Source: Mustelus asterias
Taxonomy: Eukaryota
Assembly (NCBI RefSeq): GCF_964213995.1
Contig: NC_135826.1
Coordinates: forward strand, 41,850,001 to 41,914,000
DNA: 64,000 nt
Direction: 5' to 3'
This document shows, piece by piece, positions 5,706 through 42,500 of this stretch. A program made the translations under genes and the position numbers. The notes under the pieces are model-generated. The model saw only the letters and a program-made list of their open reading frames with translations. It did not search any database and was not told the DNA's origin. Positions within the stretch are counted from its first letter, which is position 1. Each line of letters starts with the position of its first letter.

Positions 5706-5714
5706 CTTGGTAGT

Positions 5715-6100: not shown

Positions 6101-6915
6101 GCACTCTCTCAAGAATCCTCTACTCCATCTTAACGCAGTGGAGAATACCAGAGAAGATGAAGTATCTTCGACTTTGATGAAGAATTGTACAACTGGATCA
6201 TTCACTGATGCACGAAGGCAAAAAAGGTATTCAACGCCTGAGATTTGAATCAATCTGGGAGACAGGAGAGGAATATTGAAGCTGTGGACATTGCAAGCTA
6301 TGGAAATATTCAAGTTCCCAACCAGACTACTTTCTGTAGGTGGTGGCAACATTGCCACACTTGCTGCAGCACCAGCTGCCTCACTGCGGGCAATGGGATG
6401 ACTGGATCAGCATGAGGAGGAAAGACGACGCCATCTTCATCAATGGAATGAATCTCCAGGGCTGCTTCCAAATGAAATTCCTGCGTAAATCTCTTCAACT
6501 GGACAGACTCTGGAGATTTGGCCTCTGCTGAGGGACCACTTTAAAGGAAGGATGACTCACTGATTGAAGTTTAGGCATCAACTTTTTAAAATTCAATCGT
6601 GGGACATGGGCGTCGCTGGCCTGGCCAGCATTTATTGCCCATCGCTAGTTGCCCCTTGAGAAGGTGGTGGTGAGCTGCCGCCTTGAATCGCTGCAGTCCG
6701 TGTTCAGTGGGTTGACCTGATTTACTTTCACGCAAATGACTCGACTCTACGTCTACTCCAGCTGCTTGATGCACCTTTGGATTTCTCTGGACAGCTCGCG
6801 TGCTCAGCTAGTGACCTACACAGCATCTCATTGGTGGGCTCAGTGCGGCAAATTGACAAATTCAGCTCTTCAGTGGCAATCGCAGATCAATGTCGACTCC
6901 GATTGCTTTGGCAGT

Positions 6916-11629: not shown

Positions 11630-12579
11630 AGGGAGCTTTAACTCTGTATCTAACCCCGTGCTGTACCTGTCCTGGGCGTGTTTGATGGGGACAGTGTAGA
11701 GGGAGCTTTACTCTGTATCTATCCTTGTGCTGTACCTGTCCTGGGAGTGTTTGATGGGGACGGTGTAGGGGAAGCTTTACCCTGTATCTAACCCTGTGCT
11801 GTACCTGTCCTGGGAATGTTTGATGGGGATGGTGTAGGAGAAGCTTTACCCCGTATCTAACCCTGTGCTGTACCTGTCCTGGGAATGTTTGATGGTGCGG
11901 CGGTGTAGAGGGAGCTTTACTCTATATCTAACCCCGTGCTGTACTTGTCCTGGGAGTGTTTGATGGGAGACAGTGTAGAGGGAGCTTTACTCTATATCTA
12001 ACCCTGTGCTGTACCTGTCCTGGGAGTGTTTGATGGGGGACAGTGTAGAGGGAGCTTTACTCTGTATCTAACCCTGTGCTGTACCTGTCCTGGGAGTGTT
12101 TGATGGGGGACAGTGTAGAGGGAGCTTTACTCTGTATCTAACCCTGTGCTGTACCTGTCCTGGGAGTGTTTGATGGGGACAGTGTAGGGGAAGCTTTACT
12201 CTGTATCTAACCCCGTGCTGTACCTGTCCTGGGAGTGTTTGATGGGGGACAGTGTAGAGGGAGCTTTACTCTGTATCTAATCCCGTGCTGTACCTGTCCT
12301 GGGAGTGTTTGATGGGGGACAGTGTAGAGGGAGCTTTACTCTGTATCCAACCCCGTGCTGTACCTGTCCTGGGAGTGTTTGATGGGGGACAGTGTAAAGG
12401 GAGTTTACTCTGTATCTAACCCTGTGCTGTACCTGTCCTGGGAGTGTTTGATGGGGACAGTGTAGGGGAAGCTTTACTCTGTATCTAACCCCGTGCTGTA
12501 CCTGTCCTGGGAGTGTTTGATGGGGGACAGTGTAGAGTGAGCTTTAGTCTGTATCTAACCCTGTGCTGTACCTGTCCTG
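11630..12579 (+). repeat. 69-70-bp satellite array, about 14 copies
   Basis: Same unit as 5457-5705. Confidence 0.95.
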
Positions 12580-18333: not shown

Positions 18334-18512
18334 TCAACAGCTGATCTGTGTAGATGGACTTTTTGAGGAGCTGCTGTTAGGAGTCGAAGACTTTCCCTTT
18401 ATCAAGTCTTTGATCAGCCGTTTGCGAATTAAGCAAATCAGAAGTCCAAACCCCGACAAGCTGGCCAGAGGTACAGAGAGGCCCAGAGTGATAACTTCCT
18501 GCTGAGGTGTCT
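18334..18512 (-). CDS. Exon 8: transmembrane segment and Ser-rich cytoplasmic tail
   Basis: Acceptor tttctctttgtcgttccag| in phase 1. Protein ETPQQE-VITLGLSVPLASLSGFGLLICLI-RKRLIKD...SKSPSTQISC-stop. Confidence 0.88.
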
Positions 18513-21500
18513 CTGGAACGACAAAGAGAAAGTGTTCATTAATCAAACTCCACATCATCACTGGAGAAACATTTGATCCCTTACCCACAGTGAGAGGGAG
18601 CGAGCTCCAATGAAAGGCCCCTCCCATTCCGACACTATAGTTAAGAAAGCCCCACCAATGCCTCTACTTTCTCGGAAGACTAAGTAAATTTGGCATGTCA
18701 GCTACGACTCTCACCAACTTTTACAGATACAATCAGAAAGAATGCTTTCTATGGTGCATCACAGCTTGGTATGGCTCCTGCTCTGCCCAAGACCGCAAGA
18801 AACTACAAAAGATTGTGAATGTAGCCCAATCCATCGCGCAAACCAGCCTCCCATCCATTGACTCTGTCTACACTTCCCGCTGCCTCAGCAAGGCAGCCAG
18901 CATAATTAAGGACCCCCACGCACCCCGGACATTCTCTCTTCCACCTTCTTCCTTCGGGAAAAAGATACAAAAGTCTGAGGTCACGTACCAACCGACTCAA
19001 GAACAGCTTCTTCCCTGCTGCTGTCAGACTTTTGAATGGACTTACCTTGCATTAAGTTGATCTTTCTCTACACCCTAGCTATGACTGTAACACTACATTC
19101 TGCACTCTCTCCTTTCCTTCTCTATGAACGGTATGCTTTGTCTGTACAGTGGGCAAGAAACAGTACTTTTCACTATGTTAATACATGTGACAATAATAAA
19201 TCAAATCAAATCAAAAATCATCTAAACCATTAATCCCTGTTTCCTTCTCTGTACATGCTGCCTGGCCTGCTGAGGAGTTTGCTGTTATGTTATCCACGGT
19301 GACAGTGCAAACGCTTTGAAACAACTCCAACTGCTCCAAAACATTCTGGGATATCCTGAGGTTGTGAAAGGTGCTATGGAAATGCAAACTCTTTCTTGTG
19401 CTTTTTTGTCCTCTCTCTATGTGGCCAGTTGTCCCTGAACTTTTCAAACCCCCATCTCTACATACTCTCCCCCCCGCCTCACTGTACAGAAATCACCATT
19501 TATTGCAACTTTCACTTTAACACTTTGTTCCCCAGAGTGATTGAAATTGTAAACGTTTCTCTCCGTCAGTATTACACCCTTCACACAGTCCGCAGGTTTG
19601 TAATATCCTGCCTTCATCAATCTCAACTAACCTCCGACCCCACACAACCATTGACTTCATTACAGACAAGGGGTGGGATTTTCCAGCCGCGCTCACCCCA
19701 AGACTGGAAAATCCCACCTGAGGTCAAGGGACGTTTGCATGGTCCTACGATTCCCATGGAGGGCGGAATTGGAAAATTCTGCCCAAGGTCTTGTCCCTCA
19801 TTGGGTTTCATAGGCCTTCATTGGGTGGCACAGTGGTTAGCGCTGCTGCCTCACAGCGCCAGGGACCCAGGTTCAATTCCGATCTCGGGTCACCGTCTGT
19901 GTGGAGTTTGCACGTTCTCCCTGTGTCTGTGTGGGTTTCCTCTGGGTGCTCCAGTTTCCTCCCACAGTCCGAAAGATGTCCTGGTTAGGTGGATTGATCG
20001 TGCTAAATTCTCCCTTGGTGTCCCAAGATGTGCAGGTTAAGGGGATTGGTGGGGTAAATATCTGGGGTTACAGGGATAGGGCATGGGTGGGATGCTCTGT
20101 CGGAAAGTTGGTGCAGACTTGATGGGCCGAATGGTCTCCGCTTGCAGTGTAGGGATTCTAAGGTTCATTGGCTGTCTTGAGAGAGTCAGTATGAAAGTCA
20201 TAAACACGTACCTAATACAGTGACCTGAGCTCTCAGTCTCACTTCACCCAGTTCATTCTCCACCACACACTCGTACAGTCCCTGGTCATCCGGTGTCAGA
20301 GAATCGATTCTCAGCTCCGACTTCCCTCGCGAGCTGGAAATGTTCCACCTCCACTGCTTGCTGGGGTCTGTCCTTCCCCAGGTGATGTTGGGTTCAGGGT
20401 TGGCATCTCCTTGGCAGGTTAATGCCAGCGTCTCGCCCGCCCTGGCACTGCCCCCACCGTCAATGGAAACGTTCCGGGGACCGTCTGGAAAATCAGGAAA
20501 CAAATTTCAGCTCATCGGAAAAATCTGCTGTCTTGTATCCTGACTCTCAGCAATTCCCACATGCCCATCACCCTCTGTGCGTTCACTGTACACTGGCTTC
20601 CAATCCATGGAATCCCAACACTGCAGAAAGAGGCCATTCAGCCCATTAAGCCTGCACCAACAAAATTCCTCACCCAGGCCCTATCCCCATAACCCCACGT
20701 ATTTATCCTGCTCGCCCCCTGACACTAAGGGGCAATTTAGCATGGCCAATGCATCTAACCCGCACATCTTTGGACTGTGGGAGGAAACCGGAGCACCCGG
20801 AGGAAACCCACGCTGACACGAGGAGAATGTGCAAACTCCACACAGACAGTGACCTGAGGCCGGAATTGAACCCGGGTCCCTGGCGCTGTGAGGCAGCAGT
20901 GCTAACCACTGTGCCACCACCAAGCAACAGCTTCATTATAAAATTCACATCCTCATGTTTAAATCCCTGTCTGTCTCATCGAGTCACAAAGATTTACAGA
21001 ACAGGAGACCATTCAGCCCGTCATCACTGTTCTGGCTGGCAAACAGTTATCCAGCCTAATCCCATTGTCTAGTTCTTGGTCTGTAGCCCTATCAGTTACA
21101 GTAATTCATGTAGAAATCCAACAATTTAATTAAAGTTAAAGTTTATTTATTACTGTTACAAGTAGGCTTACATTAACACTGCAATGAAGTTATTGTGAAA
21201 ATCCCTCTAGTCGCCACACTCCGGTGCCTGTTCGGGTACACTGAGGGAGAATTTAGCATGGCCAATGCGCCTAACCAGCACGTCTTTCGGACTGTGGGAG
21301 GAAACCGGAGCACCCGGAGGAAACCCACGCAGACACGGGGAGAACGTGCAGACTCCGCACAGACAGTGACCCAAGCCGGGCATCGAACCCGGGTCGCTGG
21401 CGCTGTGAGGCAGCAGTGCTAACCACTGTGCCGCCCACATGAAAAGGGTCTCTGCCTCTAGCACCTTTCACCCTCTGGGAGACACAATCTCCTCGAATCG

Positions 21501-24500
21501 TTGTACCATTTACTTCATATTTTCCACCTGGTTGTTGACTTCTCTGCTAAAGGAAATAAGTACTTCCCCATCCAGACTGGTTATAATTTTATACACCTCA
21601 ATGATCTCACCTTTTCCAAAGTAAACAACCCCAGTCCACCTGAAACAAAAACAGATAATGTTTGAAAATCTCTGCAGGTCTGGCAGCATCTGTGAAGAGA
21701 GAGACAGAGTCAGTCATAGCGACTCAAATTAACTGTCTCTCTCCACAGAAGCTGCCAGACCTGCTGAGGTTTTCCAGCACTTTCTATTTTATTTCACGTT
21801 TCCCACACTCTCAGGATTTTATTTTTGTTTCCCCAGTCTATCTAATTTTTAGATTAAAATTCTCCAGTCCTGGCAACATCCTTGTAAATTTTCTCTCTTC
21901 CCCACTCCAGCACACTTACATCCTTCCTGTGGTGACCAGATCTACACAGTATCCGAGCTGTGTGGCCATATTAGTGCTTCATATCTTTCTAGTGTCACCT
22001 CGGGGCTGGAGGAGGTCACAGAGATAGGGAGGTGGTGTAGGGACTGGAGGAGGTTACAGAGATAGGGAGGGTTGTAGGGGCTGGAGGAGGTTACAGAGAT
22101 AGGGAGGTGGTGTAGGGGCTGGAGGAGGTTACAGAGATAGGGAGGTGGTGTAGGGACTGGAGGAGGTTACAGAGATAGGGAGGTGGTGTAGGGACTGGAG
22201 GAGGTTACAGAGATAGGGAGGTGGTGTAGGGGCTGGAGGAGGTTACAGAGATAGGGAGGGTTGTAGGGGCTGGAGGAGGTTACAGAGATAGGGAGGGTTG
22301 TAGGGGCTAGAGGAGGTTACAGAGATAGGGAGGGTTGTAGGGGCTGGAGGAGGTTACAGAGATAGGGAGGGTTGTAGGGGCTGGGAGAGGTTACAGAGAT
22401 AGGGAGGGTTGTAGGGGCTGGGAGAGGTTACAGAGATAGGGAGGGGTGTAAGGGCTGGAGGAGGTTACAGAGATAGAGAGGAGTGTAGGGGCTGGAAGAG
22501 GTTACAGAGATAGGGAGGCGGTGTAGGGACTGGAGGAGGTTACAAAGATAAGGAGGGTTGTAGGGACTGGAGGAGGTTACAGAAATAGGGAGGGTTGTAA
22601 GGGTGGGAGGAGTTTACAGAGATAGAGAGGAGTGTAGGGGCTGGAGGAGGTTACAGAGATAAGGAGGGTTGTGGGGCAAGAGGAGGTTACAGAGATGGAG
22701 AGAGTTGAAGAGGTTACGGAGATAGGGAGTAGTGTGGAGGCTAGAGGAGGTTACAGAGATAGGGATGGTTGTAGGGGCTGGAGGAGGTTACAGAGATAGG
22801 GAGGAGGTGTAGGGGCTGGAGGAGGTTACAGAGATAGGGAGGGGGTGTAGGGACTGGAGGAGGTTACAGAGATAGGGATGGTTGTAGGGGCTGGAGGAGG
22901 TTACAGAGGTAGGGAGAGTTGTAGGGGCTGGAGAAGGTTAGAGATAGGGAGGGTTGTAGTGTCTCGAGGAGGTTACAAAAATAGGGAGGGGTGTAGCGGC
23001 TCTAGGAGGTTACAGAGGTGGGAGGGTTGCAGGGGCTGGAGGAGATTACAGAGATAGGGAGCGTTATAGGGCCTCGGCGCCAGTGAGAAAATTAAACTGG
23101 CATTAACCTGTCAGATACACCTACCCTAAATCCTACTTCACATTTGTATGTAACTCTTCTTATCTCTGTAACCTCCTCCAGACCCTACACCCCTCCCTAT
23201 CTCTGTAACCTCCTGAAGCCCCAATAACCTCCGTATCATCCTCCAGCCCCTACACCCCTCCCTATCTCTGTAACCTCCTCTAGCCCCTACAACCCTCCCT
23301 ATCTCTATAACCTCTTCCAGCCCCTACAACCCTCCCTATCTCTGTAACCTCCTCCAGCCCCTACAACCCTCCCTATCTCTGTAACCTCCTCCACCCCCTA
23401 CACCCCCTCCCTATCTCTGTAACCTCCTCCACCCCCTACACCCCCTCCCTATCTCTGCAACCTCCTCCAGCTCCTGGAACCCTCTGCGATCTCTGTTCTC
23501 CTTCAATTCCAGCCTCTTGCATATTCCTGGTTCCCAGAATCCCAGCCATAGCTGCTGTTTCTCCAGCTGCCTGGGTTCTAAGCTCTGTTGTTCCCTACCT
23601 AAACCCCTCCACCTTCATTCCTGAGACACTTGTAAAACCTGTCTCTTTGACACTTGTAAAACCTGTCTCTTTGACAAAGATATTGGTTGCCTTTCCCAGT
23701 AACTCTGAGTGGCCGGGAGTCACATTTTGACAGATTATCAACACTTCTCAAACTGAATTTCCCAAAGGTGGGAACTGTCAGTAATTGGATCGAGTTCAGA
23801 CTGAAAATTAAACGACAAAATTCTCTGTTCTGATCAGGATCTGAACCTGATTCTGGCATGGATCACTCCCTGCTGCGTGTTCATTGACTCTCTCCACTGC
23901 ATCCTCACTCCCTCCCTCCTCATCACTTACTCCACACATACATTTGCGGGTCAGAGTGTTACCCTCCTGGTTGAATGTCTCCTCTCAGACTGAGTGTTGT
24001 GAAATCAGCAGACTGGCAAACCCTGTACTGGTCATGTCTATAAAAACCACAGTATCAGGGTTTGAGATAATTCCTGTCCTTGTGGGACTGAGTTAGTCAC
24101 TGCGTCAACTTCTGCTTTTAAACTTTTCTGTGGTTCAATTCTGTGAATTGCATGAAATTTTTAATTATTGCGCAAAGTTACAGATGGGAACACGTCTGTC
24201 TGAGAGTCAGGTTCCAGAAGCTGCTCAGACGCACTCCGAGAGAGAAACACATTTGAATTTAATCAGTCAGCGTCCTGCACAGTCCACACTCAATAACTCT
24301 GTATGAACTTCCAGCCCAGTCCATATTAACTCCATCCACCCCGCATCTAATCTGTATCCACCTCACATCCACTCCCAATCCACAGCCCAGTTACTCCCAA
24401 TCCACAGCCCAGTTACTCCCAATCCACAGCCCAGTTACTCCCAATCCACAGCCCAGTTACTCCCAATCCACAGCCCAGTTACTCCCAATCCACAGCCCAG

Positions 24501-27500
24501 TTACTCCCAATCCACAGCCCAGTTACTCCCAATCCACAGCCCAGTTACTCCCAATCCACAGCCCAGTTACTCCCAATCCACAGCCCAGTTACTCCCAATC
24601 CACAGCCCAGTTACTCCCAATCCACAGCCCAGTTACTCCCAATCCACAGCCCAGTTACTCCCAATCCACAGCCCAGTTACTCCCAATCCACAGCCCAGTT
24701 ACTCCCAATCCACAGCCCAGTTACTCCCAATCCACAGCCCAATTACTCCCAATCCACACCCCAGTTACTCCCAATCCACAGCCCAGTTACTCCTGTAATG
24801 ACGTCAATCAGGCCATTGCGGTTGGTCTATTGGAATATGAGCTCCCTGATTAAGGAGTCAATTGATGGGCCAATCAGGGAGTCTTTTCCTTGTATTTAAC
24901 CGGGAGTGTCAGTTCCTCTGGCACTCCCGAGGGTAGACTGCTGACTGCGAGCACTCTGAGTACTGCTGTTGGAATTGTAAATAAAGGGATTTTGATGAAG
25001 GGACTTCTGCCTCCAAAGACTTATTACACCTCCCAATCCACTCCACATCCAGTCCCCACCCACTCCCTGTCCACTCTACATTTACTCCAGATTCACTCTG
25101 CACTCACTCCATATTCACCTGGGCAGCACGGCGGCACAGTGGTTAGCACTGCCGCCTCACAGCGCCAGGGACCCGGATTCAATTCCCAGCTTGGGTCACT
25201 GTCTGTACGGAGTCTGCACGTTCTCCCCGTGTCTGCGTGGGTTTCCTCCGGGTGCTCCGGTTTCCTCCCACAGTCCGAAAGACGTGCTGGTTAGGTGCAT
25301 TAGCCATGCTAAATTCTCCCTCAGTGTACCCGAACAGGTGCCGGAGTGTGACGACTAGGGGATTTTCACAGTAACTTCATTAAGTGTTAATGTCAGCATT
25401 ACTTGTGACTAATAAATAAACTTTACATCCAGCTCCACACTCCTTCCACATTCCCTCCAGATGCATATTGTATTCCGGCGAAGGGGGCATTTAGAACACT
25501 TAGAATCCCTACAGTACAGAAGGCGGCCATTCAGCCCATTGAGTCTGCACCACCTCTTACCTAGATTTACCCCATAGCCTTACATATTTACCCCACTAAT
25601 CCCCCCAACCCAAATATCTTGGGATACTAAAGGGCAATTTAGCATGGACAATCCACCTAACCCGCACATCTTTGGAGTGTGGGAGGAAACCGGAGCACCC
25701 GGAGGAAACCCACGCAGACACGGGGAGAAAGTGCAAACTGACAGTGACCCGAGGCCGGAATCGAACCTGGGTCCCTGGCGCTGTGAGGCAGCAGTGCTAA
25801 CCACTGTGCCACCGTGCCGCCCACATTGAGCTGGGTAGGATTGGGGGGGGCTGCAGTGATAATACAAATGAGCTCATAATCCGGGGACCTGGGTTAATGT
25901 TCTGGGGACACGGTTCAAATCCTACCATGGCAGCTGGTGGAATTTAAATTTACTTTCAAAATCTGGAATATAAAGGTTGTACAAATATTATTGATTGTCA
26001 TAAAACCCATCTGGGTCACTAATGCCCTTTAGGGAAGGAAATTTGGTGTCCTTACCTGGTCTGGCTGACATGTGACAGTAAGTAGTCTCATAACACCAGG
26101 TTAAAGTCCAACAGGTTTATTTGGCAGCACGAGCTTTCGGAGCGTTGCTCCTTCATCAGGTGACTGAAGAGTTGTGTTCACAAACAGGGCAGACACAGAC
26201 ACAGACTCAACTTACAAGATAATGGTTGGAATGCGAGTCTTTACAGGTAATCAAGTCTCCACAGGTACAGACAATCTGAGTGGAGAGAGGGCCAAGCACA
26301 GGCCAAAGAGGCATGAACCGTCTCAAGCCAGGACAGTTGGTGAGATTCTGCACGCCCAGGCAAGTCATGGGGGTCACAGATAGTGTGACACAAACACGAC
26401 TTTGTCTATCTGATACGCTGCGGGAGGGAATGACCCGGGGGCATGGTGCACATGGGAGACCATGCAGACGCTGCGACAACGGATGAATGAACACCGCTCG
26501 ACAATCACCAGGCAGGAGTGTTCCTTTCCTGTTGGGGAGCACTTCAGGAGTCACGGGCATTCAGCCCCTGATCTTCGGGTAAGCATTCTCCAAGGTGGCC
26601 TTCACGACACACGACAGCGCAGAGTCACTGAGCGGAGGCTGGTGGCCGGGTTCCGCACACATGGGGACGGCCTCGACCGGGATCTTGGGTTCATGTCGCA
26701 CTATCTGTGACCCCCATGACTTGCCTGGGCGTGCAAAATCTCACCAACTGTCCTGGCTTGAGACGGTTCATGCCTCTTTGGCCTGTGCTTGGCCCTCTCT
26801 CCACTCAGATTGTCTGTATCTGTGGAGACTCGCATTCCAACCATTATCTTGTAAGTTGAGTCTGTGACTGTGTATGCCCTGTTTGTGAACACAATTCTTC
26901 ACTCACCTGAAGAAAGAGCAGCGCTCCGAAAGCTCGTGCTACCAAATAAACCTGTTGGACTTTAACCTGGTGTTGTGAGACATTTTACTGTGCCCACCCC
27001 AGTCCAACGCCGGCATCTCCACATCATGGCTACACGTGACTCCAGACCTCTTTAGTGTCCTATGAAATATTCACTTTGAGGGCAATTAATGATGGGCAAC
27101 AAATGCTGGCTTTGCCCACATTTCACGAAAGAATAAAAGAAAGAAAAACTCCACATCCATTCGCTGTAGTCTCACTTTCCTGAAGTTTATTCCGTCACTC
27201 ATTGGCGATCATGCAGCCTTGGACATTTGGTGTAAACACAGTAAGAAGTTTAACAACACCAGGTTAAAGTCCAACAGGTTTATTTGGTAGCAAAAGCCAC
27301 CAAGCTTTCGAGGCTCTAAGCCCCTTCTTCAGGTGAGTGGGAATTCTGTTCACAAACAGAACTTATAAAGACACAGACTCAATTTACATGAATAATGGTT
27401 GGAATGCGAATACTTACAACTAATCCAGTCTTTAAGAAACAAAACAATGGGAGTGGAGAGAGCATCAAGACAGGCTAAAAAGATGTGTATTGTCTCCAGA

Positions 27501-30500
27501 CAAGACAGCCAGTGAAACTCTGCAGGTCCACGCAACTGTGGGAGTAACAAATAGTGTGACATAAACCCAATATCCCGGTTGAGGCCGTCCTTGTGTGTGC
27601 GGAACTTGGCTATCAGTTTCTGCTCAGCGACTCTGCGCTGTCGTGTGTCGCGAAGGCCGCCTTGGAGAACGCTTACCCGAATATCAGAGGCCGAATGCCC
27701 GTGACCGCTGAAGTGCTCCCCAACAGGAAGAGAACAGTCTTGCCTGGTGATTGTCGAGCGGTGTTCATTCATCCGTTGTCGCAGCGTCTGCATAGTTTCC
27801 CCAATGTACCATGCCTCGGGACATCCTTTCTTGCAGCGTATCAGGTAGACAACGTTGGCCGAGTTGCAAGAGTATGTACCGTGTACCTGGTGGATGGTGT
27901 TCTCACGTGAGATGATGGCATCTGTGTCGATGATCCGGCACGTCTTGCAGAGGTTGCTGTGGCAGGGTTGTGTGGTGTGGTGGTCACTGTTCTCCTGAAG
28001 GCTGGGTAGTTTGCTGCGGACAATGGTCTGTTTGAGGTTGTGCGGTTGTTTGAAGGCAAGAAGTGGGGGTGTGGGGATGGCCTTGGCGAGATGTTCGTCT
28101 TCATCAATGACATGTTGAAGGCTCCGGAGGAGATGCCGTAGCTTCTCCGCTCCGGGGAAGTACTGGACAACGAAGGGTATTCTGTCCACTGTGTCCCGTG
28201 TTTGTCTTCTGAGGAGGTCGGTGCGGTTTTTCGCTGTGGACACAGTGGACAGAGTACCCTTCGTTGTCCAGTACTTCCCCGGAGCGGAGAAGCTACGGCA
28301 TCTCCTCCGGAGCCTTCAACATGTCATTGATGAAGACGAACATCTCGCCAAGACCATCCCCACACCCCCACTTCTTGCCTTCAAACAACCGCACAACCTC
28401 AAACAGACCATTGTCCGCAGCAAACTACCCAGCCTTCAGGAGAACAGTGACCAAGACACCACACAACCCTGCCACAGCAACCTCTGCAAGACGTGCCGGA
28501 TCATCGACACAGATGCCATCATCTCACGTGAGAACACCATCCACCAGGTACACGGTACATACTCTTGCAACTCGGCCAACGTTGTCTACCTGATACGCTG
28601 CAAGAAAGGATGTCCCGAGGCATGGTACATTGGGGAAACTATGCAGACGCTGCGACAACGGATGAATGAACACCGCTCGACAATCACCAGGCAAGACTGT
28701 TCTCTTCCTGTTGGGGAGCACTTCAGCGGTCATGGGCATTCGGCCTCTGATATTCGGGTAAGCGTTCTCCAAGGCGGCCTTCGCGACACACGACAGCGCA
28801 GAGTCGCTGAGCAGAAACTGATAGCCAAGTTCCGCACACACAAGGACGGCCTCAACCGGGATATTGGGTTTATGTCACACTATTTGTAACTCCCACAGTT
28901 GCGTGGACCTGCAGAGTTTCACTGGCTGTCTTGTCTGGAGACAATACACATCTTTTTAGCCTGTCTTGATGCTCTCTCCACTCCCATTGTTTTGTTTCTT
29001 AAAGACTGGATTAGTTGTAAGTATTCGCATTCCAACCATTATTCATGTAAATTGAGTCTGTGTCTTTATAAGTTCTGTTTGTGAACAGAATTCCCACTCA
29101 CCTGAAGAAGGGGCTTAGAGCCTCGAAAGCTTGTGTGGCTTTTGCTACCAAATAAACCTGTTGGACTTTAACCTGGTGTTGTTAAACTTCTTACTGTGTT
29201 TACCCCAGTCCAACGCCGGCATCTCCACATCATTTGGTGTAAAACAGCCCCACCTGGTGTCAGGAGCAGGAAATGCTGGAATGGCACAGCGGCTCAAGAG
29301 TTTGGAGTGGTCAAATGAGGAGACACTGTCTCCAGTGGCAGCAGGGTCGGTGAACAGAGGGACACAGGTTTAAGGGGATTGGCAAAAAGAACCAGAGGAG
29401 GAGATGAGGAGAATTTTTGAACGCAGCGAGTTGTTGTGATCCGCTGAAAAGGGCGTTCAACAGTAACTTTCGCAAGGAAATTGGAGAAATACTTGGAGGG
29501 GAAAGAAATACAGGCCCAATGAGGAAAGAGCAGAGTGGGAAAAAAGTTAAAGTTTATTTATTAGTGACACAAGTAAGGCTTACATTAACACTGCAGTGAA
29601 GTCACTGTGAAATTCCCCGAGTCGCCACACTCCGGCACCTGTTCGGGTCCAATGCACCTAAACCAGCACGTCTTTCAGACTGTGGGAGGAAACCGGAGCA
29701 CCCTGAGGAAACCCACGCAGACATGGGAAGAACGTGCAGACTCCTCGCAGATCCAAGCTGGGAATCGAACCCAGGTCCCTGGTGCTGTGAGGCAGCGGTG
29801 CTAACCACTGTACCGCCCCCTACTAACTTTATGTAGTTTTTACTCGTCTTTAGTTTAGAAAGGCATCATGTGGCTTCCAAAACCCTCCAAAGATGTATAG
29901 ATTAGGTGGATTGGCAATACTAAATTGCCCCTTAGTGTCAGGGGGACTAGCTAGGGGTTATAGGGATAGAGCCTGGGTGGGATTGTGGTCAAATGGCCTC
30001 CTTCTGCACTGTAGGAATTCTATGATCTCTGTGTCGGCGTAGAGTTGGTGGGCCGAAGGGCCTGTTCCTGTGCTGTACTGTTCTTTGTTCTAACTAGAAA
30101 GCTCTTTCAAAAGGCAGAGAGAGAGATAAAAATTCACAATTTTAACTGTCCTGGGTTTTCCTCCAGTTTAGAAAGGACACTTTACCAGTAATGATTTGGA
30201 AAAGCAGCAAGCAGCATTGGGAAGGCCTCATGCACGGATTTGTTATAGGCGGATATATTTCTAGCCAGAAACATCACGAACCCGGGATATTTGGAGGAAA
30301 ATGTTCTGCCTCCAGAGAATAAAATTCCTAAAGTTTGTAACAGACTGTGAACCCCATCAGTAGTGCAGAACGAAGGCTTTGAACATTCAAACATTCACCA
30401 AAATGATTTGTCATCAAGGGATCTGGCCCCTGAAATGCTTTTGTGACACTCGTCCGGGTATAATGTTTAAAGGGACCGGTTATTGATGCATTGGCTGTGC

Positions 30501-33500
30501 CTGGTTTCGAAACTGACCAACCAACCGGGTTAAAATGGACAGGGATTGTTAGAGGATACGGCAAGATATCGATAGGCTGGAGACTTGGGCAGAGAAATGG
30601 CAGATGGAGTTTAATCCAGACAAATGTGAGGTGATGCATTTTGGAAGATCAAATTCAGACGTGAATTATACTGTAAATGGCAGAATCCTTAGGAACATTA
30701 ACATACAGAGGGATCTGGGCGTACAGAACCCCAGCAGGGATCTGTACATAGGGCGGCACTGCTGTCTCACACCGCCAGGGGCCCGGGGTTCGATTCCCGG
30801 CTTGAGTCACTGTCTGTGCGGAGTCTGCACTTTCTCCCTGTGTCTGCGTGGGTTTCCTTCAGGTGCTCCGGTTTCCTCACACAGTCCAAAAGACGTGCTG
30901 GTTAGGTGCATTGGCCATGCTAAATTCTCGCTCGGTGTACCTGAACAAGCGCCAGAGTGTGGCAACTAGGGGATTTTCACAGTAACTTCATTGCAGTGTT
31001 AATGTAAGCCTACTTTACTTGTGACACTAATAAATAAACTTTAAAAGTTACAGGTCCTCGATACCCTGAAAGTGGCAACACAGGTGGTTAAGATAGTCCA
31101 GAAGGCATGTTTGCCTTCATTGGCCGGGGCAGAGTATAAAAGTTGGGAAATCATGTTGCAGCTTTATAAAACCTTGGTTAGGCCGCATTTGGAGTATTGC
31201 GTGCATTTCTGGTCACCACACGACTAGAAGGACGTGGATGCTTTGGAGATAGTGCAAAGAAGGTTCACCAGGGTGTTGCCTGGTCTCGAGGGTGTTGACT
31301 ACGAGGAGAGTTTGGGTAAACTTGAATTATTTTCACTGGAAAGACAAAGGCTGAGGGAAGACCTGATAGAAGTCTACAAAATTATGTGAGGCATAGACAG
31401 GGTGGGCAGAAGCTTTTTCCCAGGGTGGTAGTGTCAGTTACAAGGAGGCACAGGTTTAAGGTGAGGGGGGAAAGTTCAGGGGAGACGTGCAGGGAATGTT
31501 TTTCACACAGAGGGTGGTGGGTGCCTGGAATGCGCTGCTGGAGGTGGTGGTGGAAGCAGGAACATTAACAATGTTCAAGATGCATCTTGATAGACACATG
31601 AATGGGAGGCGAACAGTGGGATAGAAACAGTGTATCGGCACAGGCTTGATGGGCCGAAGGGCCTGTTCCTGTGCGGTATTCTATGCTCTTTTTTTCTGTT
31701 TTTTGGAATAAAAACCATGATGCTGCACAGGTATTCGGTCCACAATACAAACCGTTCTGTCACAGATGGCTTGTACAACAATAACTTACTGCAGTGGGTG
31801 CAGTTTTAAGTCCCGGTTTTCACTGAGCACGAGATATTTCTGCAATTTGTCCAAGATCTCACGCTGTCATAACTTTCAGATTACTATTAGAGATCATGTT
31901 CAAAGAGCCAACACCACAGACACAGCGGGCTGAATGGCCTCCTGTGGTGTATAATTTTATGATTCTATGCAGGTCAAGAGCTTCATGTTTTTAGGTGTCC
32001 AGGTCACCAACAGCCTGTTCTGGTCCCCCCCATGCCGACACTATAGTTAAGAAAGCCCACCAACGCCTCTACTTTCTCAAAAGACTAAGGAAATTTGGCA
32101 TGTCAGCTACGACTCTCACCAACTTTGACAGACGCACCATAGAAAGCATTCTTTCTGGTTGTATCACAGCTTGGTATGGCTCCTGCTCTGCCCAAGACCG
32201 CAAAGAACTACAAAAGGTTGTGAATGTAGCCCAATCCATCACGCAAACCAGCCTCCCATCCATTGACTCTGTCTACACTTCCCGTTGCCTCGGCAAAGCA
32301 GCCAGCATAATTAAGGACCCCACACACCCCGGACATTCTCTCTTCCACCTTCTTCCTTCGGGTAAAAGATACAAAAGTCTGAGGTCACATACCAACCGAC
32401 TCAAGAACAGCTTCTTCCCTGCTGCTGTCAGACTTTTGAATGGACTTACCTTGCACTAAGTTGATCTTTCTCTACACCCTAGCTATGACTGTAACACTAC
32501 ATTCTGCATTCTCTCGTTTCCTTCTCTGTGAATGGTATGCTTTGTCTGTATAACACGCAAGAAACAATACTTTTCACTGTATGTTAATACATGTGACAAT
32601 AATAAATCAAATCAAATTAAAAGACTCTTCATCGGAACGGTGTGAATCCCTACCTGTGTGTAAAACACATTCTCTTGGCTTTATGAAGCCCGCTTTATAA
32701 TCTCGAAGTGTATATAACAGAGATACTCACACTCCACAGCCACCTGAGCTCTCAGTCTCACTTCACCCAGTTCATTCTCCACCACACACTCGTACAGTCC
32801 CTGGTCATCCGGTGTCAGAGAATCGATTCTCAGCTCCGACTTCCCTCGCGAGCTGGAAATGTTCCACCTCCGCTGCTTGCTGGGGTCTGTCCTTCCCCAG
32901 GTGATGTTGGGTTCAGGGTTGGCATCTCCTTGGCAGGTTAATGCCAGCGTCTCGCTCTCCCTGGCACTGCCCCCACCGTCAATGGAAACGTTCCGGGGAC
33001 CGTCTGGAAAATCAGGAAACAAACCTTAGCTCATCATAAAATCCTGCTGTATTGACTACCTGGGGAACAGGGAATCAGAGATAGGGGCATTTAAAAAGGA
33101 AGGTTCTGGAGCTTGTTAGTTAACCTTACTCACATGGAACAAGAGAAGATATGAGGAATGATAAAACCCCCTTAACCGTAACCATATGGTGGGATGGGAT
33201 ATAAAGGAAGACGTAATGGGAGCTTGTTAGAAAGTGTAATAACACAGGAAACCCGACTAGATAGGAACATCATTTATTGACAGAATGGAAAGTAAAGCCA
33301 CATCCACAGTGTACACACACAATTGTCCCTGCCTGGGACTACAGTTCAGCAGGCCCAGTCCCAGGCCTGCCTTATAAAAGGCCCAGGTAATGAGTTTCTT
33401 TTAAAGTTTAATAAATTAGTCACAAGTTAGGCTTGCATTAACACTGCAATGAAGTTACTGTGAAAATCCCCTAGTCGCCACACTCCGGCGCCTGTTCGGG

Positions 33501-36500
33501 TACATTGAGGGGTAATTGAGCACAGCCAATGCACCCTAACCAGCACGCCTTTTGGGCTGTGGGAGGAAACCCACGCAGACACAGGGAGAACGTGCAAACT
33601 CCACACAGAGAGTGACCCAAGCCGGGAATCGAACCCGAATTCCTGGCAAGAATGCTAACCCACTGTGTTGCCCCAGCTGGGCAGGTCACTGCCTGTTATC
33701 AGGGGACCTCATACTCAACAAGCCCCAGAGGGAGGTCAATCAGTGATTCCCCATGGACATTGTGGCGGTTATCAAACTGCCAACATCTTCCCCCTACACC
33801 GAGTGTGAGGGTCTCCCCTCACTCCCATGCCGATGGCGACTTCTCTGTCTCTTCTCTTTGGCATCCTTTCCATTGTTGGGGTCTGGTCGAGGTGGGGAAG
33901 TGGGGGGGGGGGGGTAACGGATTGGGAAACATCTCTTTCCTGCAGAGCGCTGAAGAGCCACTGTGGAGGGCTTTCCTTAGTGGCGACTCGGACTGGGTTT
34001 CTGCCGCCTCTGTCATATCGGAACCAGAATCATCAGCATCCGGAGGCTGGCTCTTGGTGTTATTGAGTGTGGAATGTCCTGACCGCAGGCCAGAGTAAGG
34101 GACACCGACGTAATGGTAGAACCCGCTGCCTCTGTGGAGGGTTCCCTGTGACGGAGATGATCGATGTGTTTTTTGGAAGGTCTTCTCTCTACTTTGTACC
34201 CGATATGACACCGCTCTAGTTTTTTTTTCCAAGAATCATTCTGGAATCCACAGAGAGCCGTCACCAAAATTCCTCATGTGGACCATAACTCCCGGCCCGA
34301 AGACTGTAACCGGTCTGTGAGCATCGTGGGCCCCTTTTCTGGGCTTCTCCTTTCAACCAAACTTCTCTGCCCAAATTTGGGAACATCAGTTTAAGCCTAG
34401 TCCAAACCTGTCAGCCATCAATAGCTTCACCAGGGCTATTCCTGTCGTCAAAAGGACATGGGTCAGGAAGCAGGAGAGGGGATTCACAAAGTCTCCTGTC
34501 ACTAATGAGACTGAAATCTAATTAATACATGAAATAAGAACACCTTTACGATGTACTTTGAAACACAGAATTTCTTAGTTATATTGTATACTATACGATG
34601 ATCTATAATATCTGAATTTTAGCAATCATACTAATTACAATGCTGAAGTTTAAAGTTTTATTAGTGTCACAAGTAAGGCTTACATTAACACTGCAAGGAA
34701 GTTACTGTGAAAATCTCCTAGTCGCCACACTCTGGCGCCTGTTCGGGTCAACGCACCTAACCAGCACGTCTTTCAGATTGTGGGGGGAAACTGGAGCACC
34801 CGGAGGAAACCCACGCAGATATGGGGAGAACATGCAGACTCCACACAGACAGTGACCCAAGTCAGGAATCGAACCCGGGTCCCTGGTGCTGTGAGGCTGC
34901 AGTGCTAACCACTGTGCCAGCGTGCCGCCCGCAATGTTACTAATGCTGCATGGTTGGTGGTTTTTTATTGGTCACGGGTCACGTACATTTTCAAATGTTA
35001 AAACAGGGTCATGTTGGAACATCTTTTGGGAACCACTGCCCCAAGGAGACGCCCACATAATGTTAGCAACTCCAGGTAAGTGTCAGGGAGAATTCAGTAA
35101 AAAACCCCCAAGTGATTGATTCTATTCTGTTGCGTTGGCTGCAAAAGGAACCTGTTATTCTGGAAATCCTACAAGAAAACGTTGAAAAGGAGTTGGGCCT
35201 TTGCCTCAGTAATCAAGCTGTGTCGTTTGGTAACCGATATGTCTGTTCAATTCTAATTCCTGGGGCAAAGCCCGCCCACATATTCTCTCCAAGAAAAATC
35301 CAATTTCCTGTTTAAAGACATTGATGCGACAACTGCAATGCATCGTCCCTTTCTGGAGGACTGAGGGTTCCCTTCACTCCTCACTGGGAGGGCCCTGTAA
35401 GCAAAATGGATTATCCAGTCATCCGGAATGTTAAAAAGGACATTGGATAAATATTCGTAAAGGAGAATATTTGTATGGCTTTGAGGAAAGGCAGAGGAAG
35501 TGGATCTAATTGGACGGTTCTTTCAAAGAGGCAGCACAGGCACAGTGGGCTGAATAGCCTCCTTTCGCATTGTAATGCTCGCTATTTCTAAACAGAGTCT
35601 TTATTGGAATGGAGTAAACCCCCATTTGTGTGTTAGCCTGTGTGTAAAACACATTCTCTTGGCTTTATGAAGCCCCCTTTATAATCTCGAAGTGTATATA
35701 ACAGAGATACTCACACTCCACAGCCACCTGAGCTCTCAGTCTCACTTCACCCAGTTCATTCTCCACCACACACTCGTACAGTCCCTGGTCATCAGGTGTC
35801 AGAGAATCGATTCTCAGCTCCGACTTCCCTCGCGAGCTGGAAATGTTCCACCTCCGCTGCTTGCTGGGGTCTGTCCTTCCCCAGGTGATGTTGGGTTCAG
35901 GGTTGGCATCTCCTTGGCAGGTTAATGCCAGCGTCTCGCTCTCCCTGGCACTGCCCCCACCATCAATGGAAACGTTCCGGGGACCGTCTGGAAAATCAGG
36001 AAACAAACCTTAGCTCATTGGAAAGCCCTGCTGTCACGTATCCTAGTGATGGCCTCATGGTATTATCGCTAGACTATTAATCCAGAAACTCAGCTCATGT
36101 TCTGGGGACCCGGGGTTCGAATCCCGCCACGGCAGATGTTGGAATTTGAATTCAATAAAAAATATCTGGAATTAAGAATCTACTGATGACCATGAAACCA
36201 TTGTCGATTGTCGGAAAAACCTATCTGGGTCACTAATGTCCTTTCGGGAAGGAAATCTGCTGTCCTTACCTGGTCTGGCCTACATATGACTCCAGAGCCA
36301 CAGCAATGTAGTTGACTCTCAACTGCCCTCATGCAACTAGGGATGGACAGTAAATGCTGGCCAGCCAGCGACGCCCATGTCCCACAAATGAATATTAAAA
36401 AGTCCTGACTCACAGCATTTCCCACATGCCCAGCACCCACCGGCTCCTAACTCTGTTTCCCTTTGAAACTCGATCAAGGGCCTGTAAAAAAAGAAAAGTC

Positions 36501-39500
36501 GATTTTTAATCCCTATATGCACCAAGGGTCCCCAACCCTCCAGGTTTGTCCTTGAGTCTCCAGGATTTAAAGTTTAAATTCTGAAATACTGTCACTAACT
36601 GCCTTTGAATGATTTATTAAAGATGGGAAACCTGGGGATGAATCCTCCGGGAAAGCGCTCCAGCAGAATTGCCGAGACTCAGTAAGTACCGGGGAGAATT
36701 CAGTAACCACAACCCTCGGTGCTCGATGCTGCTCTGTGGCATCGGCTGCAAAGAAAACCTCTTGTTCCAGAAACCTGACAGGAAAGCATCAACTGGAGTC
36801 TGCCATTCGGCCCAGCAGCAACTCAGCTCCGCCATCTTGTGGCAGGAGGGTCAGCTCGATTCCAATTCCTGGGCTTCCCCATCCAGTGGCACGGTGGTCA
36901 GCACCACTGCCTCACAGCGCCAGGGACCTGGGTTCGACTCCCGGATTGGGTCACTGTCTGTGTGGAGTTTGCACGTTCTCCCCGTGTCTGTGTGGGTTTC
37001 CTCTGGGTGCTCCGGTTTCCTCCCACACTCTAAAGATGTGCAGGTTAGGTAGATTGGCCATGCTAAATTGCCCCTTCGTATCCCAAGATGTGGGGGTTAG
37101 GGGGATTAGCCATACAAAATGTGTGGGGTTAGAGGAATAGGGCCTGGTTGGGATGCTTTGTCAGAGGGTCAGTGCTGACTCGATGGACAGAATGGCCTGC
37201 ATCTGCACTATAGAGATTCTATGATAGAACATAGAACATAGAACAGTACAGCACAGAACAGGCCCTTCGGCCCACGATGTTGTGCCGACCTTCATCTGAA
37301 ACCAAGATCAAGCTATCCCACTCCCTACCATCCTGGTGTGCTCCATGTGCCTATCCAATAACCGCTTAAATGTTCCTAAAGTGTCTGACTCCACTATCAC
37401 TGCAGGCAGTCCATTCCACACCCCAACCACTCTCTGCGTGAAGAACCTACCTCTGATATCCTTCCTATATCTCCCACCATGAACCCTATAGTTATGCCCC
37501 CTTGTAATAGCTCCATCCACCCGAGGAAATAGTCTTTGAACGTTCACTCGATCTATCCCCTTCATCATTTTATAAACCTCTATTAAATCTCCCCTCAATC
37601 TCCTCCGCTCCAGAGAGAACAGCCCCAGCTCCCTCAACCTTTCCTCATAAGACCGACACTCCAAACCAGGCAGCATCCTGGTAAATCTCCTCTGCACTCT
37701 CTCCAGCGCTTCCACATCCTTCTTATAGTGAGGTGACCAGAACTGCACGCAATATTCCAAATGCGGTCTCACCAAGGTCCTGTACAGTTGCAGCATAACC
37801 CCACGGCTCTTAAACTCCAACCCCCTGTTAATAAAAGCTAACACACTATATGCCTTCTTCACAGCTCTATCCACTTGAGTGGCAACCTTTAGAGATCTGT
37901 GGATATGGACCCCAAGATCTCTCTGTTCCTCCCGTCTTCAGAACCCTACCTTTGACCCTGTAATCCACATTTAAATTTGTCCTACCAAAATGAATCACCT
38001 CACATTTATCAGGGTTAAACTCCATTTGCCATTTTTCAGCCCAGCTTTGTATCCTATCTATGTCTCTTTGCAGCCTACAACAGCCCTCCACCTCATCCAC
38101 TACTCCACCAATCTTGGTGTCATCAGCAAATTTACTGATCCACCCTTCAGCCCCCTCCTCTAAGTCATTAATAAAAATCACAAAGAGCAGAGGACCAAGC
38201 ACCGATCCCTGCGGCACTCCGCTAGCAACCTGCCTCCAGTCCGAAAATTTTCCATCCACCACCACCCTCTGTCTTCGATCAGATAGCCAGTTACCTATCC
38301 AATCGGCCAACTTTCCCTCTATCCCACACCTCCTTACTTTCATCATAAGCCGACCATGGGGGACCTTATCAAACGCCTTACTAAAATCCATGTATATGAC
38401 ATCAACCGCCCTACCTTCATCAACACACCTAGTTACCTCCTCAAAAAATTCAATCAAATTTGATAATATCATAGAATCCCTACTGTGCAAAGGGAGGCCA
38501 TCCGGCCATTGAGCCTGCACTGGCAACATTCCCACCCAGGCCCTATCCCCATAACCCCATGTATTTAACCTGCCAATCCCCCTGACACTAAGGGTCAATT
38601 TAGCATGGCCAATCCACCTAACCCGCACATAGAAACATAAAAGATAGGAGCAACAGGAGGCCATTCAGCCCTTCGAGCCTGCTCCGCCATTCATCACAAT
38701 CATGGCTGATCGTCCAACTCAACAGCCTAATCCTGCTTTCTCCCCATAACCTTTAATCCCATTCACCCCAAGTGCTATATTTAGCCGCCTCTTGAATACA
38801 TTCAATGTATTGGCAGCAACTATTTCCTGTCGTAATGAATTCCACAGACTCACCACCCTGGGTGAAGAAATGTCTCCTAATCTCCGTCCTAAATAGTCTA
38901 CCCTGTATCCTCAGACTGTGACCCCTGATTCTGGACACCGTCGGGAACATCCTTCCTACGTCTACCCTGTCTTGTCCTCTTTGGATATCCTCTCCTTCTA
39001 AGAAAATTTCCACTTAAGCACATTGATTGATTCTAAGTCTGCAATGCAGTGTCCCTTTAAGGAGTGCGGAGGATGTAATATAGTGCGCAGTGTGCCCACA
39101 TTCCACCCTGGCAGGGGGGTGGGGAGGGGGGGGGGGGGGGCACTGCACTCCAAATCGGTGAGAGCGCCTTGCAGGAGTAACTTTCAAACTGGAATTGGAT
39201 AAATACCAAGGACTGTTTGGGAAGCAAAGGGGCTAATTGGATCTCTCTCTCAAAGGGCTGGCATTGGTACAATGGGCTGAATGGCCTGCTTCCGTTATTT
39301 TCTGATGAGATAGAGACACTCACACCAAATAACTACTGAACTCTGGTGTTGGGTGCTGTTTATGCCATTGCTGATATCACAAGTGTAAACTCCTCCATCC
39401 TGAGGTTCCAGCTCGTTAATATACAGCGTGGAATGGCCACTTCCCCGGGTGATGTTCCAGTGGGATGGCCTCCTACGTCCTGAGTCAGCTTTCCTCCAGG

Positions 39501-42500
39501 TGATGGCAGGGACCGGGTCACCCGCTCCACTGCACCGTATTGACAGCGGCTGTCCTGTTTGTTTCACTGTGTGAGTTGGTTCAATCCGGGTGTTGTAGAG
39601 TCCAGCTAGATTTAACAGAAAGTATTTCAATTAGGACTCACGACAGAGACACAATTAAAAACTCAGAGACACTCTGAAATGAGAGAATTCATAAAGAACA
39701 TTTAAAATACTCTCATTATCACAAAACCTTTTTAATGAGGGAATCCCATTGTTAGGGATCTACTTAAACAAAGGAATCTCACTATTAGGGATAAGAACAT
39801 AAGAACTAGGAGCAGGAGTAGGCCATCTGGCCCCTCGAGCCTGTTCCGCCATTCAATAAGATCATGGCTGATCTTTTCGTGGACTCAGTTCCACTTACCC
39901 ACCCGCTTGCCCTTCGTTCCTTTACTGTTCAAAAATCTATCTTTGCCTTAAAAACATTCAATGAGGTAGCCTCAACTGCTTCACTGGGCAGGGAATTCCA
40001 CAGATTCACAACCCTTTGTGTGAAGAAGTTCCTCCTCAACTCAGTCCTAAATCTGCTCCCCCTTATTTTGAGGCCATTCCCCCTAGTTCTAGTTTCACCC
40101 GCCAGTGGAAACAACTTCCTTAATTCGACCTTATCTATTTAGATCTATTTAAATGAGAGAATCTCACTATTGGGGATCTATTTTAAAGAACTCATAATCC
40201 AAAGGCCCAGACTTATGCTCTGGGGACCCAGGTTCAAATCCCACCACAGCAACTGGTGAAATTTAAATTCAATTAATAGATCTGGGATTATAAAAGCCAG
40301 TCTCAGTATTGGTGACCCTGACAACTATCATCAATTGTTGGAAAAACCCATCTGGTTCACTAATGTCCTTTAGGGAAGGAAATCTGCCGTCCTTACCTGG
40401 TCTGGCCTACATGTGACTCCAGAGCCACAGCAATGTGGTTGATTTTTAACTTCCCTCTGCGCTCTGAAGTGGATTTGCGAGCCCAGGGTCAATTAGGGAT
40501 GGAGGACATGAAAGTATAAAATAAAAATCTCCTTTGCACAACTCCCAAGGCGTTGCCATCCTTCCTGAAGTGTGGTGTCCACAGTTGGACACAATACTTT
40601 ATCAAATCATTCATACGCCTTTAAAAGCTCAAACTAGATATTTGGATTATATAGAAACAGGACATTCAGCCCAACTACTCTGCTGATATTTATGCTCCAC
40701 ATGAACCTCCTCCCATTCCAGCTGCCCCGTCTCAACCTTTCAATATATCTTTCTAATTGCGTGGCATGGTGGCACAATGGTTAGCACTGCTGCCTCACAG
40801 CGCCAGGGACCCGGGTTCAATTCCAGCCTCGGGTCACTGTCTGTGCGGACTCCGCACATTCTCCCCGTGTCTGCGTGGGTTTCCTCCAGGGGCTCCAGTT
40901 TCCTCCCACAGTCCAAAAATGTACAGGTTTGGCCATGCTAAATTGCCCCTTTGTGTCCCAAGATGTGTAGATTAGGGAAATTGGCATGATAAATGTGTTG
41001 GGTTACTGGGATATGGTGGGGGGAGGGGGGCCTGGGTAAGATGCTCTGTCGGTGCAAACACGATGGGCTGAATGGCCTCTTCTGCACTGTAAGGATTCTA
41101 CGATAATCCTTTTCTCAATCTAATGAGAAGTCCTTGGCAGGTCGGATCAAGGAAAACCGCAAGGCTTTTTACTCTTATGTAGTGAGAGACGACATAGGCT
41201 CTAAGGAGCAAAACGTGGAATCGTTGTGGGTGGAGATAAGGAATAGTAGGGGGAGAAAGACACTGGTAGGTGTGGTCTATAGGCCCCCAAATAATAACCT
41301 AGAGGTGGGGAGGGCTATAAACAAGCAAATAATGGATGCGTGCAAAAGTGGAACGGCAATAATCATGGGGGATTTTAACCTACATATTGATTGGTCGACT
41401 CAAATTGGACGTGGAGGGCTTGAGGAAGAGTTCTTGGAATGCTGTCGGGATTGTTTCATTGAACAGTATGTTACAGAACCTACGAGAGAGCGAGCTATCT
41501 TGGATCTGGTTCTGTGCAATGAGACAGGTAGGATTAAGGATCTTCTTGTGAAGGATCCTCTTGGGATGAGTGATCATAATATGGTGGAATTTCTGATACA
41601 GATGGAGGGTGAGAAAGTAGGGTCCCAAACCAGTGTCCTCTGCTTGAACAGAGGGGAGTACGATAGGATGAGGGTGGAATTGGCTAATGTAGACTGGGCG
41701 AGCAGACTGGTAGGTAGGACAGCTGAGGAACAGTGGAGGATTTTCAAGGAGATTTTTTTAAGTACTCAGCAAAAATATATTCCAGTGATAAAGGACTGTA
41801 AGAAAAAGGATAACCGGACGTGGATAACGAAGGAAATAAAGGAGAGTATTAAAATAAAATCAGATGCGTACAGAGTGGCCAAAAATAGTGGAGAATTAGT
41901 GGATTGGGAAAGCTTTAAAGAAAAACAAAGAACGACTAAGAAAGCGATTAAGAAAGGAAAGACAGATTATGAAACTAAACTAGCTCAAAATATAAAAAAT
42001 GATAGTAAAAGTTTTTACAAGTATATAAAAAGGAATAGAGTGGCTAGAGTGAATGTTGGACCCTTGGAAGATGAGAGGGGGGATTTAATAGTGGAAAACG
42101 AGGAAATGGCTGAGACTTTAAATAAGTTCTTTGTGTCGGTCTTCACGGTGGAAGACACAAATAGTTTGCCGAATATTAGAGATCGAGAGTTGGTGGGAGG
42201 TGAGGTCCTTAATACAATTACTGTTACTAAGGAGGTGGTGCTTGGTAGACTAAAAGGACTGAAGGTAGACAAGTCCCCGGGCCCGGATGGAATGCATCCC
42301 AGGGTACTGAAAGAAATGGCTGAGGTAATAGCAGATGTGTTAGTAGTAATTTATCAAAATTCGCTGGACTCTGGGGTAGTGCCGGCTGACTGGAAAACAG
42401 CTACTGTTACGCCGCTGTTTAAAAAAGGAAGTAGACAAAAGGCGGGTAACTACAGGCCGGTTAGCTTAATGTCGGTAGTTGGGAAGATGCTAGAGTCCAT

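Follow-up and report, generated by a model that had tools for sequence, protein, structure and literature searches.

How can three separate exons of one gene remain almost identical, synonymous positions included, inside introns that have diverged? The question is raised by a stretch of 64,000 nucleotides (nt) from the shark Mustelus asterias (contig NC_135826.1, positions 41,850,001 to 41,914,000), here called the window and numbered from its first letter. On its minus strand it carries a gene, likely MAdCAM-1-like, in which the fourth immunoglobulin (Ig) domain, D4, is encoded by three consecutive exons, named a, b and c from the D3 exon towards the exon of the transmembrane (TM) segment. 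An original prediction, made from the letters of the window, had proposed an old duplication followed by recent conversion focused on the exons. Our answer, which we hold with a probability of about 85%, is that the D4 exons are kept near-identical by recurrent DNA-templated intragenic gene conversion, within diverged introns. The earlier proposal is borne out by intron islands of 73-74% identity, by the clustering of the copies by species and by alleles shared among the copies, and requires correction in that the converted tract is centred on the exon and does not coincide with it.

The three copies are the following.
35715-35987, minus strand: D4 copy a, 273 nt.
32731-33003, minus strand: D4 copy b, 273 nt.
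20212-20484, minus strand: D4 copy c, 273 nt, the terminal copy, with its own last 11 nt and donor and with three private amino-acid changes.
These one-domain exons are spaced by 3 and 12.5 kb, each has AG...GT borders and is in phase 1, and a genome search found exactly three copies of the exon. Copies a and b have just two mismatches in 273 nt (exon positions 26 and 194), both synonymous, as had been predicted. The earlier description of c was equally accurate: it departs from b at three internal nucleotides (46, 48 and 132), and of its last 11 nt, which are followed by a different donor, 7 are not those of b. What the original prediction did not mention is that all three internal b/c mismatches alter an amino acid, so that the number of synonymous differences between b and c is 0 in about 62 sites; between a and b it is 2 in about 65. 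The presence of three near-identical D4 exons is thus confirmed as a real observation.

The likeness extends beyond the exon borders, and its limits are set by the following features.
35637-36034: homogenised tract around a (46 nt on the acceptor side, the exon and 78 nt on the donor side), with 390 of 398 nt identical to 32653-33050.
32653-33050: homogenised tract around b.
36045-36402: interspersed repeat of 358 nt in the acceptor flank of a, with a 4-nt target duplication.
About 31972-32620: retro-element fragment private to the donor intron of b and not in a, with an ALKBH8_N-type domain match.
20505-20573: acceptor flank of c, still alignable to that of a (by a hand count, in about 57 of 69 columns).
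On the acceptor side the identity is unbroken for 31 nt between a and b and for 20 nt between c and either of them, and patchy beyond, to about -50. Once the repeat before a is excised, the flanks of a and c do align, as the original prediction had stated, out to about -90; the local score is 86, and the best of 1000 shuffles reached 38. The private insertion at b, putatively a Rex1 element in that prediction, was also correctly recognized as an insertion, and so was the one beside a, a putative SINE, though its length is 358 nt instead of 355. What had been overlooked is the donor side, where the introns of a and b match at 77 of 78 nt. Since 78 nt of donor intron belong to the a/b tract, the exchange is DNA-templated and centred on the exon, not exon-exact.

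The age of the duplication can be read from the introns, in which two sets of islands were found.
36682-36785: old paralogous island in the D3-a intron, 73% identical to 35076-35178 in the a-b intron.
35076-35567: islands of the a-b intron, collinear with those of the D3-a intron at 36682-36785, 39026-39072 and 39233-39294, 73-74% identical.
The D3-a and a-b introns therefore share three collinear islands with repeats between them, and the first pair (36682-36785 and 35076-35178) occurs at those two places only in the genome. Whole-intron alignments, being heavily gapped, were scored against shuffles only and were not used for percent identity. That of D3-a with a-b reached 844, with a shuffled maximum of 293; that of D3-a with b-c was not significant (271 versus a shuffled maximum of 270.5), and the c-TM intron matched neither of the other two introns (scores of 246 and 231, below the shuffled maxima). 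Across the private retro-element of b, 35522-35563 in the a-b intron is 82% identical to 31899-31943 in the b-c intron. The alignable paralogous flanks show 17-27% divergence. At an expected divergence of 15%, the binomial probability of the synonymous differences seen in the exons is 0.002 for a/b (at most 2 in 65) and 4e-5 for b/c (0 in 62). Flank divergence and synonymous divergence of the exons, whose comparison had been named beforehand as a test, are thus not equal (73-74% identity in the islands versus 99% in the exons). As the introns before a and b are old paralogues, with islands of this low identity broken by repeats, a recent tandem duplication of the whole unit is ruled out.

Clustering of the copies across sharks, also named beforehand, was found to follow species and not position. 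One protein per shark was taken from 14 matches, the other five being isoforms or a fragment from species already represented. The resulting nine species comprise hexanchiform and galeomorph sharks with two or three D4 copies each, 21 repeats together. These two groups split over 200 million years ago. The nearest neighbour belonged to the same species for 21 of the 21 repeats (one tie), and the mean identity was 95.0% within species (15 pairs) versus 74.5% between species (195 pairs). In each species one to nine diagnostic columns are common to all of its own copies, and not a single column separates terminal from internal copies among the 21 repeats. At the protein level the terminal repeat of Rhincodon, Stegostoma and Chiloscyllium equals the internal ones to the last residue. 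In Heptranchias (P0008/P0028 entry) D3 is duplicated as well (88/92 amino acids).

Signs of recent exchange were seen when the window was compared with contigs of related organisms. Copies a, b and c of the window have in common, at the synonymous positions 248 and 110, a base that is not present in organisms B and E. At position 248 the base of their own species is found in the c-type contigs of E and in those of B, which in run X13 continue into the TM exon. At position 194 b, c and organism D have the same base, and a and organisms B, C and E the other; at position 263 a and b are unlike the a/b-type ends of B and E. Neither the three internal changes of c nor the change of a at position 26 was seen in the contigs of other organisms. 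Synonymous sites that change between close relatives are found at positions 95, 110, 155, 194 and 248. Contigs from two samples of organism A match the b exon with 0 and 1 differences and have no diverged alternative path, and run X13, which behaves like an RNA library, contains splice junctions from exon to exon and from c to TM, in which the copies are nearly identical. A contig of a second sample (X3, depth 7.7) combines the allele of a at position 26 with the b/c allele at position 194, which may be due to polymorphism or to contig collapse. A variant seen in a single X12 contig of depth 2 was relied on only where this is indicated. The GC content at third codon positions (GC3) is higher in D4 (59 of 90) than in the other coding exons (184 of 351; P = 0.03). 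As a separate observation, an X13 contig (depth 3.1) has 29 nt matching 34266-34294 (a-b intron, minus strand) spliced to a D4 exon via a GT donor; the two candidate acceptors that were tried gave frames with a stop, and the segment is possibly a cryptic or poison exon.

A number of points weigh against recurrent conversion. The eight sequencing runs were compared as collapsed contigs, so that the assignment of copies in the relatives is partial, and three near-identical copies offer too few sites to delimit single tracts. The polarity of the alleles presumes that organisms B and E are outgroups, and position 155, a CpG, is at odds with that polarity. The difference in GC3 is not significant when D4 is compared with D3 alone (P = 0.10). 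The other shark orders were compared at the protein level, and lineage-specific re-duplication is possible there. Besides, only five of the nine species form starred clades (89/79 for the species of the window), Stegostoma and the two Chiloscyllium do not resolve in the D4 tree, and the D4 copies of Heptranchias, the weakest case, are only 78.7% alike.

These points have to be set against what other explanations can account for. The copies could be young and not converted if each lineage re-duplicated D4 by unequal crossover in a process of birth and death. The copy number of 2-3 among the protein models is in line with this, the D3 duplicate of Heptranchias indicates that such duplications recur, and crossovers inside the exon would also yield hybrid exons. 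A crossover copies the whole intron, yet the paralogous introns are 73-82% identical in short islands with private insertions. Furthermore, organism E has b-type acceptor, a/b-type donor and c-type donor flanks and organism B has a b-type flank and a c-type end, all of which are older than the alleles now present in all three copies. Birth and death is therefore considered improbable as the source of the likeness. Still less probable is an artefact by which assembly or polishing made the exons alike. Near-identical short repeats are where polishing errs, and a check made on assembled contigs is an indirect one; however, eight other sharks with independent assemblies give the same clustering by species, the samples of organism A agree with b without a diverged path, and the exon-exon and c-TM junctions of X13 carry near-identical copies as well.

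Selection on the protein and on exonic splice signals could preserve the likeness without any exchange. The domain is conserved between sharks (55-96%) and the 20-nt acceptor identity could be a splice constraint, but synonymous sites do vary between close relatives, a and b agree at 77 of 78 nt of intron, and amino acids that differ between species are nevertheless common to the copies within a species. By this last finding selection alone is largely refuted, and we give it almost no weight. Conversion templated by reverse-transcribed spliced mRNA would homogenise exons only. It would suit an identity that peaks on the exon in a genome rich in retro-elements. As the a/b tract takes in 31 acceptor and 78 donor intron bases, a spliced-RNA template is excluded for a/b; in addition, no intron was lost, and organism E is unlike a and b at 4 of the first 19 donor bases where these two agree (one contig, depth 2). 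As a general source of the likeness it is hardly credible.

Recurrent DNA-templated conversion is therefore retained, and its history may have been as follows. In the chimaera orthologue only one D4 comes after D3. At an early stage of shark evolution the 3' ends of the D3 and D4 exons would have undergone an unequal crossover, by which a unit consisting of the D3 donor, the intron and the D4 exon was duplicated. With such a unit the internal copies would end like D3 (the D3 donor and the a/b donor are alike at 11 of 12 nt), and c alone would retain the D4 end of the ancestral gene together with the donor that leads to the TM exon. The last 11 nt of c are likely this original, non-homologous D4 end; the abrupt switch noted in the original prediction is real, but it is likely more than the mere end of a tract. 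The introns would then have diverged and filled with repeats, with purifying selection keeping the exons alike. With about half of the window covered by repeats, ectopic repair has likely no island left for pairing except the selected exon (270-400 nt). Tracts would begin in the exon and fade where homology breaks, after 20-50 nt of acceptor flank and in the 78-nt donor flank of a/b. In c the tract would stop at nt 262, as the sequence downstream is non-homologous. Because the TM exon begins with AG, the final T of a and b would create TAG in c, and a stop before the membrane anchor may be a second cause of the boundary in c. The orectolobiform terminal repeats, alike to the last residue, would fit a barrier that is lineage-specific.

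Intragenic concerted evolution as such is already known (PMC5100051, PMC2930355, PMC9779670). As in the known cases, the repeats of one gene are closer within than between species. In a metazoan survey, repeat homogenisation was rare and lineage-specific (PMC5100051), whereas it is found here in 9 of 9 sharks. The repeats of Dumpy lie in one exon and were ascribed to unequal crossing over, whereas those of the shark gene are separate one-domain exons; in Argiope MaSp2 the introns are homogenised as well, which is not so in the shark gene. The variable exons of clustered protocadherins (PMC1852091) and mammalian DDX19A/B, TUBG1/2 and BMP8A/B (PMC2720389) resemble the D4 exons in synonymous-site identity, sharp tracts and long persistence, and perhaps in their raised GC3, but there conversion acts between genes or alternative first exons and here between consecutive exons of one transcript. 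Conversion requires a few hundred nucleotides of similarity and is stopped by divergence and transposon insertions (PMC3924837). In the primate L/M opsins of the same paper, selection can block conversion at given sites, as the would-be stop may do at the last base of c; their polarity is opposite, with homogenised introns and an exon that escapes. No literature on the shark gene or its repeats was found, judged by titles and the beginnings of abstracts and with subscription papers outside the scope. The process itself is known, and the shark gene is a well-supported, clean new case of it, set apart by exons of one domain each that are homogenised while their introns have diverged, and by its occurrence in all nine sharks.

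The locus thus provides a compact, well-bounded natural case of conversion between separate exons of one gene, apparently lasting across shark orders. The ends of the tracts can be read base by base, in the acceptor decay, the 78-nt donor tract and the would-be stop at the last base of c, so that existing shark assemblies could serve to test how long the tracts are and what part repeat insertions play. The host locus is not unique even in its own genome, since a VCAM1-like gene has a similar exon pair: its tandem Ig exons at L029:5002-5262 and 6346-6606 (G000:C8:75.140-75.142 Mb) are unlike at 5 of 261 nt. Before the exon the identity of this pair ends at about 14 nt, whereas downstream it continues for about 240 nt of intron; a further copy of the exon is at about 80%.

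The host gene was mapped in the window with the shark proteins found by the repeat search. Its remaining exons are listed below.
52380-52434, minus strand: signal-peptide exon with ATG (tblastn with the leader of a shark orthologue, E 4e-5; GT donor, frame continuous).
50492-50770, minus strand: Ig domain D1, VCAM-1/MAdCAM-1 type with four Cys (best PDB match VCAM-1, E 1e-5, next MAdCAM-1).
45751-46074, minus strand: Ig domain D2.
39324-39605, minus strand: Ig domain D3.
18334-18512, minus strand: TM and cytoplasmic exon with stop, beginning AG (c-to-TM junction in a contig of run X13).
The frame is intact over 8 exons and 645 amino acids, without internal stop, and all introns are GT-AG and phase 1. 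The gene has the layout of the ICAM/VCAM/MAdCAM family, with an N-terminal four-Cys Ig domain that bears an acidic C-D loop motif, further Ig domains and a TM segment; its IDS motif in D1 aligns to the integrin-binding loop of VCAM-1. The ICAM_N profile scored above cut-off in one of four proteins and just below it in a second. An exhaustive HMMER search with D1 gave 45 matches; the 20 that were checked comprised 9 MAdCAM-1, 2 VCAM1, 2 VCAM1-like (chimaera and gar) and 7 uncharacterised or unnamed proteins, and among named proteins from outside the sharks the best matches were mostly MAdCAM-1. An unrooted D1-D2 tree of 19 rows, built without ICAM outgroup, separated the window family, the gar gene and MAdCAM-1 from VCAM1 and the VCAM1-like gene on C8 (100/99); an earlier tree without the C8 gene had not resolved. 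From its sequence the host gene is likely MAdCAM-1-like and the probable MAdCAM-1 counterpart of cartilaginous fish.

Like tetrapod MAdCAM-1 and VCAM-1, it combines a four-Cys D1 with an IDS-type loop, D2 and a single TM segment. Tetrapod MAdCAM-1, a ligand of integrin alpha4beta7 on mucosal endothelium, has a mucin stalk, whereas the stalk of the shark gene would be formed by D3 and the 2-3 D4 repeats; a Ser/Thr/Pro-rich mucin stretch is absent from the window model and the shark orthologues and present in P0020, P0022 and P0024. Each D4 repeat has three N-glycosylation sequons, and the repeats may form a glycosylated stalk beneath a putative integrin-binding D1-D2 head. Synteny with the MADCAM1 region is suggestive only. 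A mitochondrial-type RNA polymerase gene lies on the same contig, 19 Mb away, with no direct neighbour matched, and an arrestin-domain (ARRDC-type) first exon (L018:2609-3034, plus strand) was found about 95 kb downstream; we take both genes to lie near MADCAM1 in human. The synteny markers TP_methylase and CDC37_N had no match in the genome, and UQ_con had none on C26 among 60. No batoid or catshark orthologue was among the matches of the word-limited searches, by which absence is not shown. A review table (PMC7916592) places MADCAM1 under terrestrial vertebrates only.

Other identities were considered and rejected. As a VCAM1 orthologue, the separate gene with seven Ig exons at G000:C8:75.138-75.144 Mb, which groups with VCAM1, is the better candidate. 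The database labels contactin-5, hemicentin and MAG do not agree with the domain layout, which has no FN3 domains with a glycosylphosphatidylinositol anchor, no giant Ig array and no Siglec V-set head, and a Siglec/CD22 identity, hinted at by the D4 motif, was dropped after D1-D3 had been found. The NCBI model for Mustelus asterias (P0002, contactin-5-like) matches the exons of D4 and TM but has neither the leader nor D1-D3; its first 54 residues are D3-a intron (window 36835-36674), and the label is wrong. That a gene labelled contactin-5, hemicentin-2 or MAG in databases is likely the MAdCAM-1 counterpart bears on the origin of lymphocyte homing. Tentatively, and with the odds somewhat against it, a wider reading can be proposed: a true shark MAdCAM-1 orthologue with an Ig-repeat stalk instead of a mucin, its stalk exons held identical by self-sustaining, exon-centred conversion in all lineages since sharks arose, and with the same process in shark VCAM1 and perhaps in catfish VCAM1. 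If this were true, the family would be a standing model of how selection on an exon sustains a conversion island amid diverged introns. The catfish VCAM1 (P0008/P0028 entry) has three D1-D2 units with 91-94% identity.

In the window and its 200-kb flank, 88 of 1207 candidate frames were scanned, of which 8 had a Pfam match, mostly to retro-elements; a weak Ig match in L011 was rejected, as its translation is unlike an Ig domain. A 595-amino-acid frame at L013:4570-6354 (minus strand) with RNase H and integrase domains is the pol of a long terminal repeat retro-element. Inverted long interspersed nuclear element fragments lie on either side of the D3 exon (37232-38462 and 44398-45631), 97% identical over 1.2 kb. 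A GIY-YIG element, presumably of Penelope type, at 27214-29233 has an internal inverted arrangement around 28240 and a more decayed relative at 26075-27029. Minisatellites occur at 22002-23496 (an array of 37-38 nt followed by an inverted block of the 37-38-nt unit), at 24371-24793 (22-nt array) and at 11630-12579 (70-nt array, with a relative at 5454-5709).

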